The notes beneath the pieces are model-generated. The model was not told the origin of the DNA. It saw nothing but the letters and a program-made list of their open reading frames with translations, and searched no databases. 64,000 bases of DNA from Bythopirellula sp. (GTDB taxonomy: Bacteria > Planctomycetota > Planctomycetia > Pirellulales > Lacipirellulaceae), in contig OZ244170.1 of assembly GCA_965216565.1 (NCBI GenBank), forward strand, positions 4,672,001-4,736,000, read 5' to 3'. The translations under genes and the position numbers were made by a program. Below are positions 6,004 through 15,209 of this stretch, in pieces; position 1 is the stretch's first letter; every line of letters begins with the position of its first letter.

Positions 6004-6450
6004 CTTAATCACAGCTCACCCCCTTTCTGGGATGAGCAACACATAACGGCAGACCACGATCGCTTGTGTGACCCTTGATTCGAAATTGGCCCAAAATCAA
6101 CTGTTGACTTCGCAGTGTTGAACATTTGGAAAGCGAAGTCGAAAAGACTGCCGCGACGGAATTGAGCCCGCGTAAGTTTTCTTCCTCAGCGGCGCAGGGA
6201 TTGTACTCTCTCTTCTCACACGCCATCGGCGGATCGTCATCCAACGGCGGCTTACCCCGTGGGGCTTGCACCCAGGATTTGGAGTTTCGACGTTCGACGA
6301 AGCTGGCTACTTGGCCCTACCTGCATTCCAAGGGAGGGGAGTTCTACCGCTGGTGGAAGCTGGCTGGATCCAAGCCGCAATAGAGATGAGCGAGATTGCA
6401 CAGATTCGACTCAGCCAGAAAATGAATCGGCGTTTCACGCTTGGGCTTTT

Positions 6451-6646
6451 CCCCGAAGGGGATATATTCCGTAGCCCAGGGTTGCGGCGCAGGCGCTACC
6501 CTGGGTAAGTGAAGGCTAGTAAATATACCCCAAAAGGGTTTTATAAAGTGTGTAACCCTTTCAGGGTAGGAATGATGCCGATTAAGACCCAGGGTAGATC
6601 GCTTTGCGATCAACCCTGGGCTACGGTATGTAACGCCTTCGGCGTA
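6451..6646. repeat. Long nested palindromic REP/REPIN-like element
   Basis: ccgtagcccagggttg ... caaccctgggctacgg arms, inner ctaccctgggt/acccagggtag arms, and small terminal hairpins. Confidence 0.75.
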
Positions 6647-6701
6647 TCGCGGTGACTTATCTGCCTCGAATTCATCGGCTGGTTCAATTAATGGACGGGC
6701 C
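6606..6701 (+). repeat. Repeat block A, copy 1 (96 bp)
   Basis: Direct repeat of 7922-8017 with 2 mismatches. Confidence 0.9.
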
Positions 6702-6856
6702 GGGTGCCATGCCCACGCTTGTTGGTTTTCTGAGTCGTGACGACACGCCAACACACATAGCCAGGCTGCCTGCTCCGAGGTGTTGCGTGGGCATGTTGGA
6801 GAATCAGCAAGTGCGCTAAGACCTTCAGTTGCTTCGGCGTGGCCATGGCACCCGGC
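6699..6856 (+). repeat. Repeat block B, copy 1: 158-bp MITE/REP-like element
   Basis: Terminal inverted repeat gccgggtgccatgcccacgc / gcgtggccatggcacccggc (19/20); direct repeat of 7766-7923 with 2 mismatches. Confidence 0.9.
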
Positions 6857-6916: not shown

Positions 6917-7519
6917 TTAGATCCGCTTTCGCAATCGGCAGCTCATGCCCAATATTCCGAGGGTGACGAGGATAAAGGTATTGGGCTCGGGACTGGCATG
7001 CACCGAGATCGTGTCGACGGAGCTTCTGTACGAAAGCGAACAGCTAGGGCATATTGAGGCATGGATTTGCGCGAGCTCATCGAAATCATTTGCGTCATAA
7101 GATGTTGGAACATCCGGCGTGTCGTATATGTTGGCAGTCGACCTCAGGGATAAGAACCCAGTTTCACCGGGGGCGAAAAAGAAATCAAACTCTACACCGT
7201 CTGCATAGATGCCAGACCAAACATTAAATACGTGAACTTCATACGAACGGCCCTCGATCGTTACATCGAAAAAGCTCCCATCATAATTTGCAGCTGCTGG
7301 CGTAGAAGATACGACAGATGCGGTGGGATCGACAGTGAACGACCCACTATAGGTGTCGCCGACAGACTTGCCAGGAAAAAGTGCACCCAAAGCGTTGTCC
7401 TGAACTACGCCACTGAAGTTGAATGTCAGCGGCGCAGCATTGACGGAAGCTGCAATGGCGATCACCGACAGAATGCTAAGGCATGCGTGAAAGCTCAGTT
7501 GTATGACTGTTGAAATCAT
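6917..7519 (-). CDS. PEP-CTERM sorting domain protein
   Basis: Signal peptide; C-terminus SPEPNTFILVTLGILGMSCRLRKRI. Confidence 0.85.
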   Translation of the reverse strand: MISTVIQLSFHACLSILSVIAIAASVNAAPLTFNFSGVVQDNALGALFPGKSVGDTYSGSFTVDPTASVVSSTPAAANYDGSFFDVTIEGRSYEVHVFNVWSGIYADGVEFDFFFAPGETGFLSLRSTANIYDTPDVPTSYDANDFDELAQIHASICPSCSLSYRSSVDTISVHASPEPNTFILVTLGILGMSCRLRKRI

Positions 7520-7765
7520 GTAGCTTTCCTTCTGGTTATGGATTGTCCAATCACAGGAAGATACTCAATACTCAGACCTCAGAAGTTGCTTGAATTAGCT
7601 AAATAGATCGTCGGAAACAATGGCAATATCCACTAGAGATGGATTCATCCATGACTACTTGCGTAAATCGGCTCAATGATGATCCAGATAGTTAAGTCAG
7701 GGAACACCACTAGCTGCCAGTGCTGGCAATTTTATGGCCAAGTCTAGCGTCTTGACTCAACGTCA

Positions 7766-7923
7766 GCCGGGTGCCATGCCCACGCTTGTTGGTTTTCTGA
7801 GTCGTGACGACACGCCAACACACATAGCCACGCTGCCTGCTCCGAGGTGTTGCGTGGGCATGTTGGAGAATCAGCAAGTGCGCCAAGACCTTCAGTTGCT
7901 TCGGCGTGGCCATGGCACCCGGC
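7766..7923 (+). repeat. Repeat block B, copy 2
   Basis: Near-identical to 6699-6856. Confidence 0.9.
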
Positions 7924-8017
7924 GATCAACCCTGGGCTACGGTATGTAACGCCTTCGGCGTATCGCGGTGACTTATCTGCCTCGAATTCATCGGCTGGTT
8001 CGATTAAGGGACGGGCC
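7922..8017 (+). repeat. Repeat block A, copy 2
   Basis: Near-identical to 6606-6701. Confidence 0.9.
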
Positions 8018-8253
8018 AGGTCGGGGATTGGTGGGTGCGGCACCTGCTCTGCGGACTCGCGCGGCCATTTGGTGCGTGAAATACAGCGTTTCCCCCTTCT
8101 AATACTAGTCTTTGAGCCCTTGCCTAAGCAGCAGGGAGGCGGTAAATTGGTTGATTCTCCACTGCCCGAGGCAGAGGCCAGATAGAGCTTGGTTGGCACC
8201 ACTTGGCTGCGAGCCACGATGATGTGAAGGATTGGAAGAAGGTTCAGAAACTT

Positions 8254-9366: not shown

Positions 9367-10161
9367 ATGGCGCAGACCATTCTCGAAGAGATCGTCGCCA
9401 CCAAGCGCCAAGAAGTAGCCGCTGCTAAGAGTCGCACTCCTCAGCAAGACTTGCAGTCCGCCCTGGCGGGTGCACCGCCGGTGCGAAATTTCTTTGCAGC
9501 ACTCGACGCTGAGGATTCTATTCAGCTGATTGCTGAAGTGAAGAAGGCCAGTCCTTCGGCAGGGATCATCCGAGCTGATTTTGATCCCGTCTCCATTGCC
9601 AAGATCTACGAGTCGCATGGGGCCGCCTGCATCAGTTGCTTAACTGATGAGTCGTACTTTCAAGGCAGCTTGGAGTACCTCAAGCAAATCCGTCAGCAAG
9701 TATCGATCCCAGTACTTCGCAAAGACTTTATCATTGATAGCTATCAGTTGCTCGAAGCGCGAGTCGCTGGTGCCGATGCCGTCCTGCTAATTGCCGAGTG
9801 TCTGGACGATTGCAATCTGCGAGCGCTGCACAACGAAGCCATCGAACTAGGCATGACGCCACTAGTCGAATTCTACGAGCCGGCAAACCTGGAGCGCGTG
9901 TTAGCAGCGGGCGCGAGGCTTATTGGCGTGAACAACCGCAACCTGCACACGTTCGAGGTCGATCTCGATCATACCTTGCGTATGAAAGAGATCATTCCCG
10001 ACGAGTGCCTGCTGGTGGGCGAGAGCGGAATCAAAACCCATGCGGACGTCACTCGACTGCAGCAAGCAGGGGTCGACGCCATCCTGGTGGGCGAAACGCT
10101 CATGCGTCAGTCCGATATCGGACAGGCAGTCGACACACTGCTGGGACGCAGTGCGACTTAG
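9367..10161 (+). CDS. trpC: Indole-3-glycerol phosphate synthase
   Basis: IAEVKKASPSAG, LRKDFI, GVNNRNL and ESGI motifs. Confidence 0.96.
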   Translation: MAQTILEEIVATKRQEVAAAKSRTPQQDLQSALAGAPPVRNFFAALDAEDSIQLIAEVKKASPSAGIIRADFDPVSIAKIYESHGAACISCLTDESYFQGSLEYLKQIRQQVSIPVLRKDFIIDSYQLLEARVAGADAVLLIAECLDDCNLRALHNEAIELGMTPLVEFYEPANLERVLAAGARLIGVNNRNLHTFEVDLDHTLRMKEIIPDECLLVGESGIKTHADVTRLQQAGVDAILVGETLMRQSDIGQAVDTLLGRSAT

Positions 10162-10925
10162 CTGTCCTGCGAATTCCGGAGTCTTCGTCTTGTTACTAGC
10201 AAGGAGCCGGCCGACAGCATTGCCAAGCCAACTGTGGATGGCTCAGGTATGAGCATCGTTCCCGAGATGGTCATAGCACCCGAGGCGAGTACTGCTTCCA
10301 ACGGATTGCCGGCGGTCATTGGCAACGTAGCCGTGTACGATACGACGATCGGCTGATTGGGATCGAACGCAAGCCCACCGGGTAGATTCTGGCTATCCAG
10401 CGACGAGGCAGTTCCAGTGATCAGGAAGACATTATCTGTAATGGCCACGTTGAGCTGCTCGAAGTTCAGCTTCAAGAAGCGGCCAGCATCATCGAACCAA
10501 TGAAATCCGAAGTCGTCGGTATTGGCACCTACCGAAGCGAAGTTCAGGCCCTTGGTCAACTGACCGACGCCATCCAAGGAAAAATCGCCCCACATGTCGT
10601 TCATAAATGGCGAGCCTGTGATGGGAGTCATATCGAGTTCGAAGACGGCACCCTGCAGAGGATCTGCTTCGTTTGCATCCATATTGCCACCCGGTTTGCC
10701 AGTCATATCGTAAATGGCACCGCCGGCCTGGTTGTTGTAGATCATGTCCATATCGGACAGGATGATGTTGATGGTTCCTGCGGAAGCATGCGAACTGAGC
10801 ATGGCCCCCAGAACGAAGGCTAGGAGAGTGAGCATCACTCGACCTGCGCCATAGGGGCGTGACATCCAATGAGGCACGTTCGACGTGCAATCTCGTGGGC
10901 TACAAACTTGTGTGTGGCTAAACAT
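10158..10925 (-). CDS. PEP-CTERM sorting domain protein
   Basis: Hydrophobic signal segment LTLLAFVLGAMLSSHASA; C-terminus IPEPSTVGLAMLSAGSLLVTRRR; start uncertain. Confidence 0.85.
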   Translation of the reverse strand: MFSHTQVCSPRDCTSNVPHWMSRPYGAGRVMLTLLAFVLGAMLSSHASAGTINIILSDMDMIYNNQAGGAIYDMTGKPGGNMDANEADPLQGAVFELDMTPITGSPFMNDMWGDFSLDGVGQLTKGLNFASVGANTDDFGFHWFDDAGRFLKLNFEQLNVAITDNVFLITGTASSLDSQNLPGGLAFDPNQPIVVSYTATLPMTAGNPLEAVLASGAMTISGTMLIPEPSTVGLAMLSAGSLLVTRRRLRNSQDS

Positions 10926-11111
10926 GGTTGGTTTCGCTCTCGGTATGAATAGTTACTAGTAAAAAGCCCTCGGATTAAGCGACTCATGCCCCTAGGGGCT
11001 TTCGTCTTCCTTGCTTGTCTTTCGGCAGTACTTCGAAATTTCGTCTGAGTGCCTGCCATTCTTGGAAAGCTAACTCAAGCGGTTTCACGGTCTCTTATTG
11101 TTTGCAGCGTG

Positions 11112-11327
11112 TTACCAACTCATTCGCTTATTGGCTCGTTGGTGCATGCCGCCTATTTTTTTGGATTTACTTTTGGTCGATTTGACTTTTCTTTTCGTAT
11201 TGGCTCGCGAGCGAGTTGCACTTGGTCGCGGAGCTCGATTTTGCCGACGCGGCGCTATCGAGTAAGCCATGGAATAATCAGTGTCTCCATCAAGCAATTC
11301 AGGTTCTTTTTCTTTTCTGTTGCGCAT
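11112..11327 (-). CDS. Small basic protein (71 aa) ending GGMHQRANKRMSW
   Basis: Acidic N-terminal part with DYS, K/R-rich C-terminal part; C-terminal motif shared with the ORF at 12330-12509. Confidence 0.7.
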   Translation of the reverse strand: MRNRKEKEPELLDGDTDYSMAYSIAPRRQNRAPRPSATRSRANTKRKVKSTKSKSKKIGGMHQRANKRMSW

Positions 11328-11979
11328 CGGTAGAAATCCTGCTATGGGTTAAGGGGGTTATCCGGTCGCCGCCTCTGGCCATTGATTCACCGCTTTGGGG
11401 AGGTGATTCTTGAGTAGGTGGTGGCATACTTGCCATCAACATTTGGATCGAGTTGGAAGTGGATTGATGTTCCAGTCCTGAGCTAGCGGTACGCGCTACT
11501 GCCTTGCGCGCCTCTTCAAACACCCAGTTGATCTTGCGAGGGTTGGTCACCTGGGGCAGGTAGGACCACGCGCCTAGACCTCGAGCCCAGATTTCTTCGC
11601 TCGAGTCTTCGCTGTTCCCACAAAGGATGAGAAGCGAATCGGAGATATCGCAGACCTTTGCCGATGCTTCGCGCATCTTCTGATAGTTGACTTGATTTGG
11701 CTCCGGCAAATCGACAATCGTTAGTGGCACCTTCATGCGGAAGAGGTGCTTAATGAACTTGCCTGCGTTGTTGCAAACGATTGCATCCCACGCCTCGTTC
11801 TCAGCGGCAGACTGCAAACCCTCGGCTCGGGAGTCGTTCCAGGAATAGATCAGGCAGCGCAGTAGGCCTGGTGGAGCTAACATCCGCATCGGTGCACCAG
11901 GTTTCCCGACAGGTTCTGTCGGCTGAGGCACCGCTTGCGCGTGTTCTGTAACAGTGGAATTCGGAGAGGCTGACGCCAC
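11299..11979 (-). CDS. Degenerate response-regulator receiver (pseudo-receiver) protein
   Basis: Receiver-like pattern CLIYSWND..LTIVDLPE..LLILCG..EEIWARGLGAWSYLPQ; ggag RBS before GTG. Confidence 0.62.
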   Translation of the reverse strand: MASASPNSTVTEHAQAVPQPTEPVGKPGAPMRMLAPPGLLRCLIYSWNDSRAEGLQSAAENEAWDAIVCNNAGKFIKHLFRMKVPLTIVDLPEPNQVNYQKMREASAKVCDISDSLLILCGNSEDSSEEIWARGLGAWSYLPQVTNPRKINWVFEEARKAVARTASSGLEHQSTSNSIQMLMASMPPPTQESPPQSGESMARGGDRITPLTHSRISTDAQQKRKRT

Positions 11980-12329
11980 AGTGTTAGCTCCAAGTAGGTG
12001 TGTTATCGATGGTGTGGTCGATCTTCAGACATGTGTTTTCCCCACGGCCTGTTGATACTTATGTAAAACGTGCCCAAGCAGGAACGGGGTTAGGCGCAAC
12101 ATGCGCTCAACCTCACCCAGGCGCAGTACTAGGAGTTCAGCACTCCGAGCGCATGCGACGGGCAATTGTCCTACAGCTTGCTCTAAATTGTTCCCTCGGC
12201 GCACTCATGCTTCGCGCCGGTCCGTTGTTCAGTTCAGCAATTGTGCAAAGCACAATCAGCAGCGCAGCTAAAGATTGGTCGGACCTCAGCAGCAACGTAT
12301 GGCTGCAGACGATCCTGGCAATCGCGGCG

Positions 12330-12509
12330 CTACCAAGTCATCTTGCGTCGGCGACGCTTGTGGATTCCATTCACAGATTGCGGACCCTTGCCACGCTTCC
12401 GGCCGTGCGTAGGACGCCGCGACTTCGAAGCTTTGATAGGAGTGGATCGGCGGAATGTGTCGTTGCTGTAGTCAGCTTCCATAGCTTCATAAGATTGGGA
12501 ATGACTCAT
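12330..12509 (-). CDS. Small basic protein (59 aa) ending NGIHKRRRRKMTW; absent from the ORF track
   Basis: AAGGAG RBS 9 nt before ATG; MSHSQSYEAMEADYSNDTFRRSTPIKASKSRRPTHGRKRGKGPQSVNGIHKRRRRKMTW; first ORF after a sigma54 promoter. Confidence 0.75.
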   Translation of the reverse strand: MSHSQSYEAMEADYSNDTFRRSTPIKASKSRRPTHGRKRGKGPQSVNGIHKRRRRKMTW

Positions 12510-12662
12510 TGACTAGGTCTCCTTAGACGAATCACAGTTGCTCTAGCACGTGGGCGCGGGGCCAACATCACGCAGCTAGTTGTTCATGCCGTCAGCAATA
12601 AGCTGACGGGGAGTGAAGCGTTGCCGGTCGTTTTCCAGTTCGCTTCGACAGCAACTGTTAAC

Positions 12663-12677
12663 GCGATTCGCGTGCCA
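12663..12677 (-). promoter_or_regulatory. Sigma54 -24/-12 promoter
   Basis: Minus strand TGGCACGCGAATCGC, i.e. GG-N10-GC with a perfect TGGCACG -24 element. Confidence 0.72.
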
Positions 12678-12762
12678 GTTCCGGAAAGTGTTGCTAAGAA
12701 ACGCTCAAGTCCTTACGGCTAAGACGTTTGCAGCCAGCGCTTGGAGAAACGCAAAGAATGAG

Positions 12763-12871
12763 TTGCATCACCAAACTAGTGATGCAATTTGCCGTGAAAT
12801 TCACTTCGCATTAGTCGGCTAGATCAGAATGGCAGATTCACTACCTTGGTGATCCATCACCATTTGGGTGA
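12763..12871. promoter_or_regulatory. Three candidate enhancer (UAS) boxes, TCACYA-N3-TRGTGA
   Basis: TCACCA-AAC-TAGTGA (12768-12782, inside the palindrome ttgcatcac-N7-gtgatgcaa), TCACTA-CCT-TGGTGA (12838-12852) and TCACCA-TTT-GGGTGA (12857-12871). Confidence 0.68.
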
Positions 12872-13079
12872 GGGCTGGGAAACCGCTCTCAAAAGCCCTT
12901 ATTTGGCCGATTTCGGGAAGGTCGCTAGCATCGTCGTCGGACAGGGAGCAATGGCGGAGACGTCTAGTGGCAAGGTGCTGAGAGGGCCAGGAACGGCTAC
13001 CGATTGAACCCGTTCAGGCAGCACGAAAGAGGGGCCCTACTATGCCAAGATAGCACCGCGTTGCATTACCCAGAGTGGG

Positions 13080-14051
13080 TTATTCTTGGTCGTTTTCGAT
13101 TTGAGCTAGCAGCCTAGTCATCGTGTTGGGGTGAACTCCCAGCAGTTCGGCCGCTTTGCCCTTGTGACCATCAGTTGTTTTCAGCGCTTGCTGCACCGCA
13201 GCCTGACGCAGACGGCCGAGGTCGGTGAAGGGCAGCCGCGATTCTCTGCCATCGTTAATATCTAGCCCTGGAAGCATAGGTTCGCATTCCAAGACGTAAC
13301 TCTGCTCGATGACGTATCCAAGTTGTCGTAGGTTGCCAGGCCAATGATATTCGCAGAACTTGCGCAGTATTTCGGCGTCGGGTTGCCAGACTTCTTGCTC
13401 ATACTGGGCTGCATACTTGCGTGAGAAAAAGTCTATAAAACTAGGGATATCCTCAGCTCGCTCGCGAAGCGGAGGCATGTGCAATTCAACCAAATTGAGT
13501 CGGTAAAACAGGTCCTCGCGGAAGCGCCCTTCTTCCACATCGCGAATTAAATTGCGATTGGTTGCGGCACAAACTTGCACATCGATCTTCACCGGATGGG
13601 CAGCGCCTACGGGTGTGACTTCGCCTTCCTGCAGAACTCGCAGCAGTTTTGGTTGCAATTCCAAAGGCATATCGCCGACTTCGTCGAGGAATACTAGGCC
13701 CTCGTGAGCCGATCGGAAGACACCTAAACTCTTGCCTGCCGCACCTGTAAACGCTCCGCGTTCGTGGCCGAATAGCTGGCTCTCAGCGAGTGTGGCGGTG
13801 AGTGCCGCGCAATTGACCGGGACAAATGGCTTAGAATGCCTAGGTCCCAAACGATGAAGAAGCCGCGCCCATACTTCCTTGCCCGTACCGGTTTCGCCGG
13901 TAATTAGCACGGTACATTCCACTTGAGCAGCACGCTCAGCGTGGTGCGCGATCTTGTTAATTGACGGATCGCGTCCTATGAGTAGGCTCGCTGGATCCTC
14001 AGGCGGCAGGGAAGCCACCGAGTCTAGCGAAACCGCTATAGTAGATGCCAT
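13080..14051 (-). CDS. Sigma54-dependent enhancer-binding protein without an N-terminal sensor domain
   Basis: Walker A GETGTGKE, intact GAFTGA, FLDEVG, FREDLFYRL, WPGNLRQL, C-terminal HTH; only ~20 aa precede the AAA+ domain. Confidence 0.93.
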   Translation of the reverse strand: MASTIAVSLDSVASLPPEDPASLLIGRDPSINKIAHHAERAAQVECTVLITGETGTGKEVWARLLHRLGPRHSKPFVPVNCAALTATLAESQLFGHERGAFTGAAGKSLGVFRSAHEGLVFLDEVGDMPLELQPKLLRVLQEGEVTPVGAAHPVKIDVQVCAATNRNLIRDVEEGRFREDLFYRLNLVELHMPPLRERAEDIPSFIDFFSRKYAAQYEQEVWQPDAEILRKFCEYHWPGNLRQLGYVIEQSYVLECEPMLPGLDINDGRESRLPFTDLGRLRQAAVQQALKTTDGHKGKAAELLGVHPNTMTRLLAQIENDQE

Positions 14052-14378
14052 ATCTCAACTCCGAGGAGCAAGGCCTGGTTCCATACCTCGCTCCACTAAT
14101 TCAATGCCCCTAGTTTCGAGATTCGCGTTCCGATGCTCCTCTGAAACTATCCAACTCAAATCACTGGCGGCCCAGCCTATAGTTGTGAAAAAAATTTCCA
14201 GGACGACGTAAATACCTGACCCACAGTTCTTTGCAGGCCACGCAGTCCAACCCTTATTGTAAACCCAAGCCGGAATTCACTCAAACAATCTGTATTGGAT
14301 AAAACGTCCATTCTAGCTAAAGCGCAACGATTATAACGATTTTTGAAGGAGCATTGTAAGTCCAGTGATTTCAGAGAC

Positions 14379-15209
14379 TTACGGGTCTCCAGAGGGGGGA
14401 GATAGCTGCTTTCCGACTGGGGATTGGGGGTGGGAGACTGGCGCAGTGTGAATATCCGGAGTTTTTGGCCTCCAAGGGACCAATTTCCTACCTGGAATCG
14501 ACGACCGCTCCGTGGCAAAAAATAGGACGTGCTGCCAGGGCAACTCATCGAATTGACGGACCAGTTTGAACTTGTTCGCGGCCAACTCTTTCAACACCTG
14601 GGGCTGGCTCATCTTGTGCAGCGGGCGAATCGGGACGTTGGGATCTTCCTCGCGAAACTCTACTAAGACCAGCAGCCCGTCGCGTTTCAGGCTGCGATGC
14701 ATCGCCTTCAATACGGGTTCGGGCTCGAAGAGTTCATGGTAGACATCGACCATCAGCACCAGATCGACCGAATTCGGTCTAAGCCCTGGATCGGCTTCAG
14801 TCGCTAGGACAGGCTCAATGTTGGTAATACCACGGGACTGGGCACGTTCTGTTAACAGGTCGAGCATTTCTTGCTGAATATCAACTGCCAATACACGGCC
14901 ACGCGGTCCAACTCGGTGTGCCAATTCAATCGAGTAGTAGCCGTTGCCGCATCCAAAATCGCATACCGTCTGCCCCTTCTTTAGCTTGAGGGCACCCAGC
15001 AGTAACTTGGGCTGCTCTTCTTTCTCGCGCGATTTGCGAATGAGCCAGTCAGCGCCGCTGGCCGACATGGTGGGAGCGATTTGTCGGCCCATGTACCAAC
15101 CGGGACGCGACTCGCGTTTGCTGGATTCAAGTTCTGCGGCCCTCGAGTTAGGCGTGAAGCAGATTGCTACAAGTAGCACTACAGAAATGCGTCTGACAAC
15201 AGTCGACAT
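14379..15209 (-). CDS. Class I SAM-dependent methyltransferase with signal peptide
   Basis: VCDFGCGNGY, AVDIQ and VDVYHE motifs; start approximate. Confidence 0.85.
   Translation of the reverse strand: MSTVVRRISVVLLVAICFTPNSRAAELESSKRESRPGWYMGRQIAPTMSASGADWLIRKSREKEEQPKLLLGALKLKKGQTVCDFGCGNGYYSIELAHRVGPRGRVLAVDIQQEMLDLLTERAQSRGITNIEPVLATEADPGLRPNSVDLVLMVDVYHELFEPEPVLKAMHRSLKRDGLLVLVEFREEDPNVPIRPLHKMSQPQVLKELAANKFKLVRQFDELPWQHVLFFATERSSIPGRKLVPWRPKTPDIHTAPVSHPQSPVGKQLSPPSGDP

Follow-up and report, generated by a model that had tools for sequence, protein, structure and literature searches.

In Escherichia coli, pspA is located in the operon that PspF activates. PspF is described as an activator with only an AAA+ and a helix-turn-helix (HTH) domain that is under negative control in trans through a side face of the AAA+ domain (PMC3791423), and the sensor-less activators HrpR and HrpS of Pseudomonas syringae are inhibited in trans by HrpV and relieved by HrpG (PMC3105312). 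The anti-activator FleN of Pseudomonas aeruginosa contacts FleQ at alpha2, alpha3, beta2, and loop 1 (PMC8528422). Repression in cis is also described: in the NtrC1/DctD type, the receiver domain keeps NtrC1 inactive (PMC12998190), and the N-terminal GAF domain of NorR represses by blocking the GAFTGA surface (PMC2941729). Here, we analysed a stretch of 64,000 nt from contig OZ244170.1 of Bythopirellula sp. (hereafter, the window; the whole genome is labelled G000), which carries a gene for a sensor-less sigma54 activator, three palindromic boxes, a -24/-12 promoter, two small basic open reading frames (ORFs; S1 and S2), a stand-alone pseudo-receiver, and a PEP-CTERM gene, all on the minus strand and all located where the original prediction had placed them.

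Four things are evident from the sequence: the anatomy of this locus, its fixed spacing, the co-occurrence of its parts, and the presence elsewhere in the genome of another boxed promoter, which fronts a third small paralogue (S3). We tentatively read them, at slightly less than an even chance, as a negative feedback circuit like that of PspF and PspA, with a detached receiver domain as the inhibitor. The activator would be made from its own sigma70-like promoter, be active by default, bind the three boxes, and turn on both the sigma54 operon promoter and the S3 gene. The pseudo-receiver, encoded downstream, would dock on the sigma54-contacting face of the activator and damp it, and, less securely, a signal acting on its invariant Asp90 might release the activator. 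The output of the circuit would be small arginine-rich proteins. By analogy, such a circuit would likely work as PspF-PspA, HrpRS-HrpV, and FleQ-FleN do.

The locus differs from each of the described systems. The activator scored under the cut-offs of all 25 NCBIfam families shown, and its predicted distinctness from Psp, Ntr, Rtc, and PrsK/PrsR was upheld by 239.7 vs 443.55 bits for PspF (TIGR02974), 291.8 vs 558.6 bits for the NtrC type (TIGR01818), 288.3 vs 650 bits for RtcR (NF038308, matching the AAA+ part alone), and 268 vs 502.6 bits for PrsR (TIGR02915). PspA is helical, whereas the partner here has a receiver fold and the putative outputs are small basic proteins; none of the ORFs on either side of the activator matched a PspA family in Pfam, PspA having been looked for in the window alone. 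The modelled contact overlaps the FleN site at beta2, alpha3, and loop 1 (PMC8528422), but FleN is a dimeric P-loop ATPase and FleQ retains an N-terminal domain, whereas a lone pseudo-receiver is predicted to bind here. HrpR and HrpS form a hetero-pair, whereas nearly all relatives have a single activator gene here, and the partners and targets also differ. In contrast to NtrC1 and NorR, the receiver has its own gene, located downstream of the target promoter, and is without the catalytic residues, and, unlike in the NtrC type, no receiver is present in the activator chain. The proteobacterial PrsK/PrsR/PrsT system likewise has a sigma54 promoter with an upstream enhancer motif at a PEP-CTERM gene; however, PrsR comes with a receiver and a kinase, and its motif of 17 nt, which has TTTACA at its end, is found before most PEP-CTERM genes (PMC1569441), whereas the box here is TCACY-N5-RGTGA, no scan having been made for TTTACA itself.

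Activator, boxes and distribution among relatives

The activator gene (13080..14051, minus strand) encodes 323 aa that matched PF00158 (E 1e-65, 221 bits) and PF02954. Its sigma54 AAA+ domain starts at residue 24, and the Walker A and B motifs, GAFTGA, and arginine-finger region of bacterial enhancer-binding proteins (bEBPs) all occur in the protein, with motif residues unchanged or almost unchanged across 40 aligned rows, together with a Fis-type HTH. The predicted lack of a sensor domain, an architecture of the PspF/HrpRS type, was confirmed here and likewise in 39 orthologue loci, whose reading frames leave no space in which a conserved sensor domain could fit and whose likely start lies ~50–60 residues before Walker A. 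The genome also encodes an RpoN-box protein.

Boxes 1, 2, and 3 (12857..12871, 12838..12852, and 12768..12782, respectively) are palindromes of the consensus TCACY-N5-RGTGA obtained from relatives. Boxes 2 and 3 match the originally proposed TCACYA-N3-TRGTGA exactly, and box 1 does so with one mismatch. The distance is 19 bp between boxes 1 and 2, 70 bp between boxes 2 and 3, and 106 bp between box 3 and the -24 GG of the sigma54 promoter TGGCAC-N5-TCGC (12663..12677, minus strand), for which transcription +1 would be near 12651. Allowing up to two mismatches, 11 box matches were found in the window vs 5.0 expected, a number reached by 0/100 shuffles, and besides the three boxes only one other site in the 64 kb had one mismatch or fewer. 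Conserved synteny, which the original prediction had named beforehand as a check, was found: the operon lay downstream in 21 of the 40 activator loci that we fetched (from 39 of the other 46 genomes). In all 22 linked loci (21 from relatives and the window), the GG-N10-GC promoter was located upstream of S1, and boxes 2 and 3 were spaced by 69–73 bp. The distance from box 3 to GG was 104–107 bp (16 loci) or 115–119 bp (6 loci), two classes differing by about one helical turn; boxes 1 and 2 were 19 bp apart wherever both were clear, and the middle box was degenerate in three loci. Where the small-protein hit was not beside the activator, all 18 fetched loci retained the promoter and at least one box, and 17 retained at least two. 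Both the synteny and these retained cis elements support the prediction of a self-contained conserved sigma54 unit.

The species collection gave 159 pseudo-receiver loci, and of the best 80 of these, 70 had the promoter with two or more boxes upstream, compared with 0/64 control stretches, some of the 80 being from genomes that also trained the box matrix; a small protein was in range in 71. When the genome itself was scanned with the matrix from relatives, the triple box of the window ranked first among 10 clusters by a wide margin. We consider it highly probable that this activator reads the boxes. No internal sigma54 promoter was conserved in the operon, and Rfam gave no match in 9800-14600. 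A single box at C1:3100652 (score 15.7) lies 294 bp upstream of a consensus sigma54 promoter, and another at 2054698 (13.5) lies 188 bp upstream of one; these possibly represent weaker regulon members or chance.

Activator orthologues (E <= 1e-80) were detected in 47 of the 61 sampled relatives, with 61–84% identity and nearly always as a single copy. The pseudo-receiver and the S1 family were present in the same 44 relatives, all among these 47, and neither was present in the 14 relatives without the activator. Boxed small-protein genes are present in two of the three activator-only genomes (G047 and G042). Across 151 genomes sampled from the whole class, the activator and pseudo-receiver occurred in the same 8, and the small-protein profile matched those 8 and one false positive; judging from these genomes, the system appears only in part of the order Pirellulales. 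Most of the closest named records for the pseudo-receiver belonged to Pirellulales, the best matches including Bythopirellula and Lacipirellula, and none among the best 80 of the 159 records was named Rhodopirellula. Near this genus, the gene order is promoter-S-receiver-S-PEP (S, small protein); further out, it is promoter-receiver-S or promoter-PEP-receiver-S, and the pseudo-receiver comes first among the recognised genes behind the promoter in several distant lineages. The pseudo-receiver is the constant core of the operon, and the PEP-CTERM gene, which the original prediction had listed in the module, occupies a variable slot.

The leader of the activator gene contains a sigma70-like promoter candidate (TTGAGT-17-TACAAT; 14256..14284, minus strand). 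Two such sites were found vs 2.6 expected by chance, a count that is weak alone, and the -10-like hexamer aligns across 21 leaders. A conserved 17-bp element, GGCTGGGCCGCCAGTGA (14161..14177, minus strand), lies ~110 bp before the start codon; its GCYAGTGA core was present in 21/21 leaders, and its genome-wide best score was obtained here (31, vs 18.6 for the next site). This element may be the binding site for an upstream regulator. Autoregulation of the activator via boxes was rejected, as the 330 bp upstream lacked a sigma54 consensus in 40/40 loci and no box cluster was seen. In some relatives, the activator coding sequence contains a box-like match that tracks the codons for F-T-N-L-G; this match was discounted. 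Three further sensor-less sigma54-type activators are encoded in the genome (C1:3282473-3283516, minus strand; 1318209-1319222 and 3860276-3861358, plus strand), the first of which has GAFTDS in place of GAFTGA and is located upstream of five tandem PEP-CTERM genes. In one relative's locus (L151), a second sensor-less activator lies just downstream.

The pseudo-receiver and its predicted contact with the activator

The stand-alone pseudo-receiver (11299..11979, minus strand) has 226 aa, of which approximately residues 40–166 form the folded part. Its model showed a (beta/alpha)5 receiver fold (pLDDT 88), and the top Foldseek matches were receivers with a probability of 1.00. A tail of ~58 residues (window 11299-11480, minus strand), without counterpart in most orthologues (~168 aa), overlaps the start of the 71-aa S2 ORF and probably arose from a lost stop codon. 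A profile search yielded 577 clusters, the best 150 of which were used as representatives and were short (129–334 aa). The phospho-acceptor Asp90 after beta3 was conserved in 40/40 and 149/150 sequences, and the protein is therefore not an aspartate-less receiver. The acidic pair after beta1, Thr/Ser after beta4, and Lys after beta5, which we take to be the canonical receiver positions, were not kept: S-W-N follows beta1, position 120 is Cys in 134/150, and Lys was not among the five commonest residues at 141–143 in the 150 representatives. The most conserved part is the alpha4-beta5 motif EExWARQLGxWxYLP. The three best non-self matches of the profile in the genome were receiver-AAA+ activators (E 4e-5 to 4e-4), and no fused form was found among 8000 longer candidates, which is a weak test. 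VpsR has an atypical receiver, and the Pfam VpsR domain weakly matched 12/40 pseudo-receivers (best E 2e-4).

In a model of the complex, the activator and pseudo-receiver scored 0.79 vs 0.00 for the best of three controls; the mark applied to this score was reached by 116/157 solved pairs and 2/215 mismatched pairs and is only roughly valid with our own alignments. At least 89% of the contacts agreed between runs, with a partner pLDDT of at least 85. On the activator side, the modelled contact comprised residues 75–92, 101–115, 124, and 127, corresponding to beta2, alpha3, the GAFTGA loop with the residues that follow it, and the Walker B Glu124, and on the receiver side it comprised alpha4-beta5-alpha5. 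The receiver contact residues were nearly fixed in the 150 representatives (E129 in 150, G136 in 150, W138 in 149, and R133 in 146). On the strength of this model, the pseudo-receiver probably binds the activator, and, given binding, inhibition would be the probable effect because the modelled contact covers the GAFTGA loop. The site resembles those of FleN and NorR and leaves out helix alpha1, which activating receivers touch instead (PMC10696123), and inhibition is therefore favoured. The trans-acting partner that had been predicted within the activated operon is likely to exist, the pseudo-receiver being the predicted candidate.

Several observations weigh against a circuit with a detached inhibitory receiver. 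The contact controls were unrelated proteins only, with no receiver domain among them, and, because solved bEBPs contain receiver-AAA+ contacts, the complex score may partly reflect likeness to those contacts. Family-specific activator residues were not significantly enriched at the interface (7/25, with 28/167 positions in the interface; p 0.09), and a second cluster of them (A35, H37, A41, V44, C46, W61, and L65) surrounds alpha1, outside the interface. Conservation of the receiver interface was just slightly higher (0.60 vs 0.50, p 0.045). One genome, G038 (99% complete), has the activator with no pseudo-receiver or small protein found and is a real exception; its modelled interface was no more diverged than others, which does not support a loss of the interface in activators for which no pseudo-receiver was found. 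The relatives are not independent samples, and the co-occurrence carries no p-value. Because 350 bp without conserved sequence part S1 from the pseudo-receiver in this genome, we can only infer their co-transcription; no conserved sequence was seen in the S1 leader or in this gap in 14 aligned loci.

The missing receiver-domain control, the non-significant interface enrichment, G038, and the activator leader with its own conserved element and sigma70-like site would all suit a reading in which the activator is controlled otherwise (by its own expression, a small ligand, or another partner), the pseudo-receiver is an output adaptor, and the contact is a generic receiver-AAA+ fit. We regard this as unlikely in view of the large difference in score with consistent contacts, the location of the most invariant receiver residues at the contact, the agreement of the modelled site with the known anti-activator site, and the near-perfect co-occurrence of the activator and pseudo-receiver. 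The pseudo-receiver might also bind and stimulate the activator through ring assembly or loop release, giving positive feedback and a bistable, fate-locking switch. NtrC and FleR receivers activate through ring stabilisation (PMC10696123), and the complex model carries no sign; however, the site takes in F101–A104 of the GAFTGA loop and omits the activating contact at alpha1, and PspA and HrpV, the known trans partners of sensor-less activators, are inhibitors, which makes stimulation quite improbable.

Small basic proteins, the second boxed promoter and the PEP-CTERM slot

S1 (12330..12509, minus strand; 59 aa), found in 44/61 relatives, has an acidic N-terminus, a basic body, and the C-terminal motif NGIHxRRRxKxxW. 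S2 (11112..11327, minus strand; 71 aa) ends in GGMHQRxxKRxxW, of which G, H, and R are invariant in an alignment of 19 sequences. The predicted relatedness of the two applies to the common C-terminal G-[IML]-H-x-R...W motif but not to the rest, with 14% identity in the alignment. The fold model of S1 had no confident structure and was mostly coil (pTM 0.16). We collected 131 distinct sequences of small proteins by a motif filter, so that their traits are partly selected: their mean length was 62 aa, their median pI was 11.5, Lys and Arg made up 26%, and the net charge was -3 over the first 20 residues and +13 over the rest. In total, 106/131 ended in Trp, with the consensus end NGIHRRRxKRxxW. 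No Pfam or NCBIfam family matched more than 1/73 members of the small-protein family, the best E-value in a PDB profile search was 0.1, and these three databases gave no match to a described ribosomal, nucleoid-associated, or hibernation-factor family. The database names were 'hypothetical protein', and the Atlas matches were unnamed Planctomycetota clusters. Tandem expansions were observed in relatives, with six copies interleaved with a PEP-CTERM gene (L160:2116-5588) and three copies each in L151:5432-7004 and L083. A general planctomycete nucleoid protein was excluded, as true matches occurred in just 8/151 class genomes.

The genome contains 29 intergenic consensus sigma54 promoters, and the best single box fronts the one at C1:568971 (minus strand). 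The first ORF behind this boxed promoter encodes S3, a third small basic paralogue of 72 aa that ends in GITHRRNHRWSW (G000:C1:568630-568848, minus strand; L169:15631-15849). The S3 gene was absent from the ORF list; it is divergent from a chaperonin gene and is followed by a GNAT acetyltransferase gene (PF13480), with a tRNA-Lys and an integrase gene downstream. Among the 61 relatives, 12 hits were obtained, 9 of which were true genes, and all 9 had three boxes and a promoter. At the S3 loci, the boxes were 21–23 and 154–166 bp apart and the promoter lay 158–212 bp further on, and the genes downstream of S3 differed among relatives. Of six further unlinked copies outside all alignments, 5 had boxes and a promoter. 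Spurious small-protein hits (L178, L180, L181, L191, and L203) were removed after inspection. Profile-profile comparison linked S3 to S1/S2 (96%, E 4e-9, 27 C-terminal columns); on the opposite side stands this genome's own S3, which alone reached only E 7.9 against the S1/S2 profile built without S3 genes. Both boxed promoters front a gene for a small basic protein, and the small proteins are therefore the likely common output. The originally predicted output, a pair of small proteins, was correct as to the kind of protein but not the number, the family having one to several copies per locus, with six in L160 and a further gene at the second promoter elsewhere in the genome.

A second sigma54 consensus (G000:C1:569917, minus strand, to ~569340; L171-L177, L182, L196, and L199) was observed 300–730 bp upstream of the S3 boxes in the 10 loci aligned, and L179 had none. 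In 7 of those loci, it was followed by a conserved GAGYAGACCA-ATG-TAA/TGA-like motif, which is possibly a start-stop element and had no Rfam or tmRNA match. Across the ten S3-type loci, Rfam gave just tRNAs and one sub-threshold match.

The PEP-CTERM surface protein (10158..10925, minus strand; 255 aa from the first ATG) scored 15.6 bits against TIGR02595 (cut-off 16). A PEP-type gene lay near the pseudo-receiver in 58 of the 80 loci and was out of range or missing in 22 (15/71 where the sequence suffices). In all, 67 proteins filled the slot; they fell into 19 sequence clusters, with that of the window as a singleton, and none of 13 tested passed the cut-off of a named PEP subfamily. Approximately 186 ORFs in the genome matched a PEP-CTERM-like tail pattern, and one exosortase match was found. 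Only 3/186 lay close to a consensus -24/-12, all three without a box, and the box as a general control of PEP-CTERM genes was rejected, with 0/186 having both elements directly upstream. Near-identical short stretches at window 6344-6846 and 7710-8185, which share their translated text and are possibly a repeat element, flank another PEP-CTERM gene (6917-7519).

A third alternative, in which the small proteins regulate the loop (e.g., as HrpG-like anti-inhibitors acting on the pseudo-receiver via the C-terminal motif) and the PEP-CTERM surface protein is the output, would draw on the resemblance of a short conserved terminal motif on a disordered chain to a docking peptide, on the 58/80 loci with a PEP-type gene despite its 19 clusters, and on the HrpG-HrpV precedent (PMC3105312), but it is the least probable of those considered, as the small protein is the sole conserved product of the second boxed promoter, up to six small-protein copies occur in one locus, and 22/80 loci have no PEP gene in range. 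Returning to the small proteins as the circuit output, their charge, disorder, and copy number would fit a stoichiometric nucleic-acid binder. We see an even chance that they are produced in quantity and act on RNA or DNA by binding, the PEP-CTERM surface protein being co-expressed as variable cargo.

Meaning for Pirellulales

No description of this circuit was found in the literature covered, mostly open-access papers, including PMC12316311 and PMC2754498. If the modelled contact holds, a detached receiver-like anti-activator under the activator's own target promoter would be a type of feedback not found described there. In this literature, the trans inhibitors of sigma54 activators are few (PspA, HrpV, FleN, and NifL), and none is a lone receiver fold. 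If true, the circuit would represent a new structural class of anti-activator and an evolutionary link between cis repression (NtrC1 and NorR) and trans repression. A broader joint reading, which we consider unlikely as a whole, is that of a naturally split response regulator, whose receiver, having left the sigma54 activator and come under the activator's own promoter, would be a diffusible anti-activator sensing via its lone aspartate; pulses of multi-copy, disordered, arginine-rich microproteins would coat ribosomes, RNA, or the nucleoid and, with a swappable surface protein, would give one clade of Pirellulales a switch for life stage or dormancy. The microprotein family is unnamed and now comprises 131 collected sequences. 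Cultured Bythopirellula and Lacipirellula strains carry the pseudo-receiver locus, and the regulon could be rebuilt in E. coli. Overall, the locus offers planctomycete biology a compact regulon consisting of an activator, its binding site, two promoters, and a putative partner with a contact predicted at the residue level.

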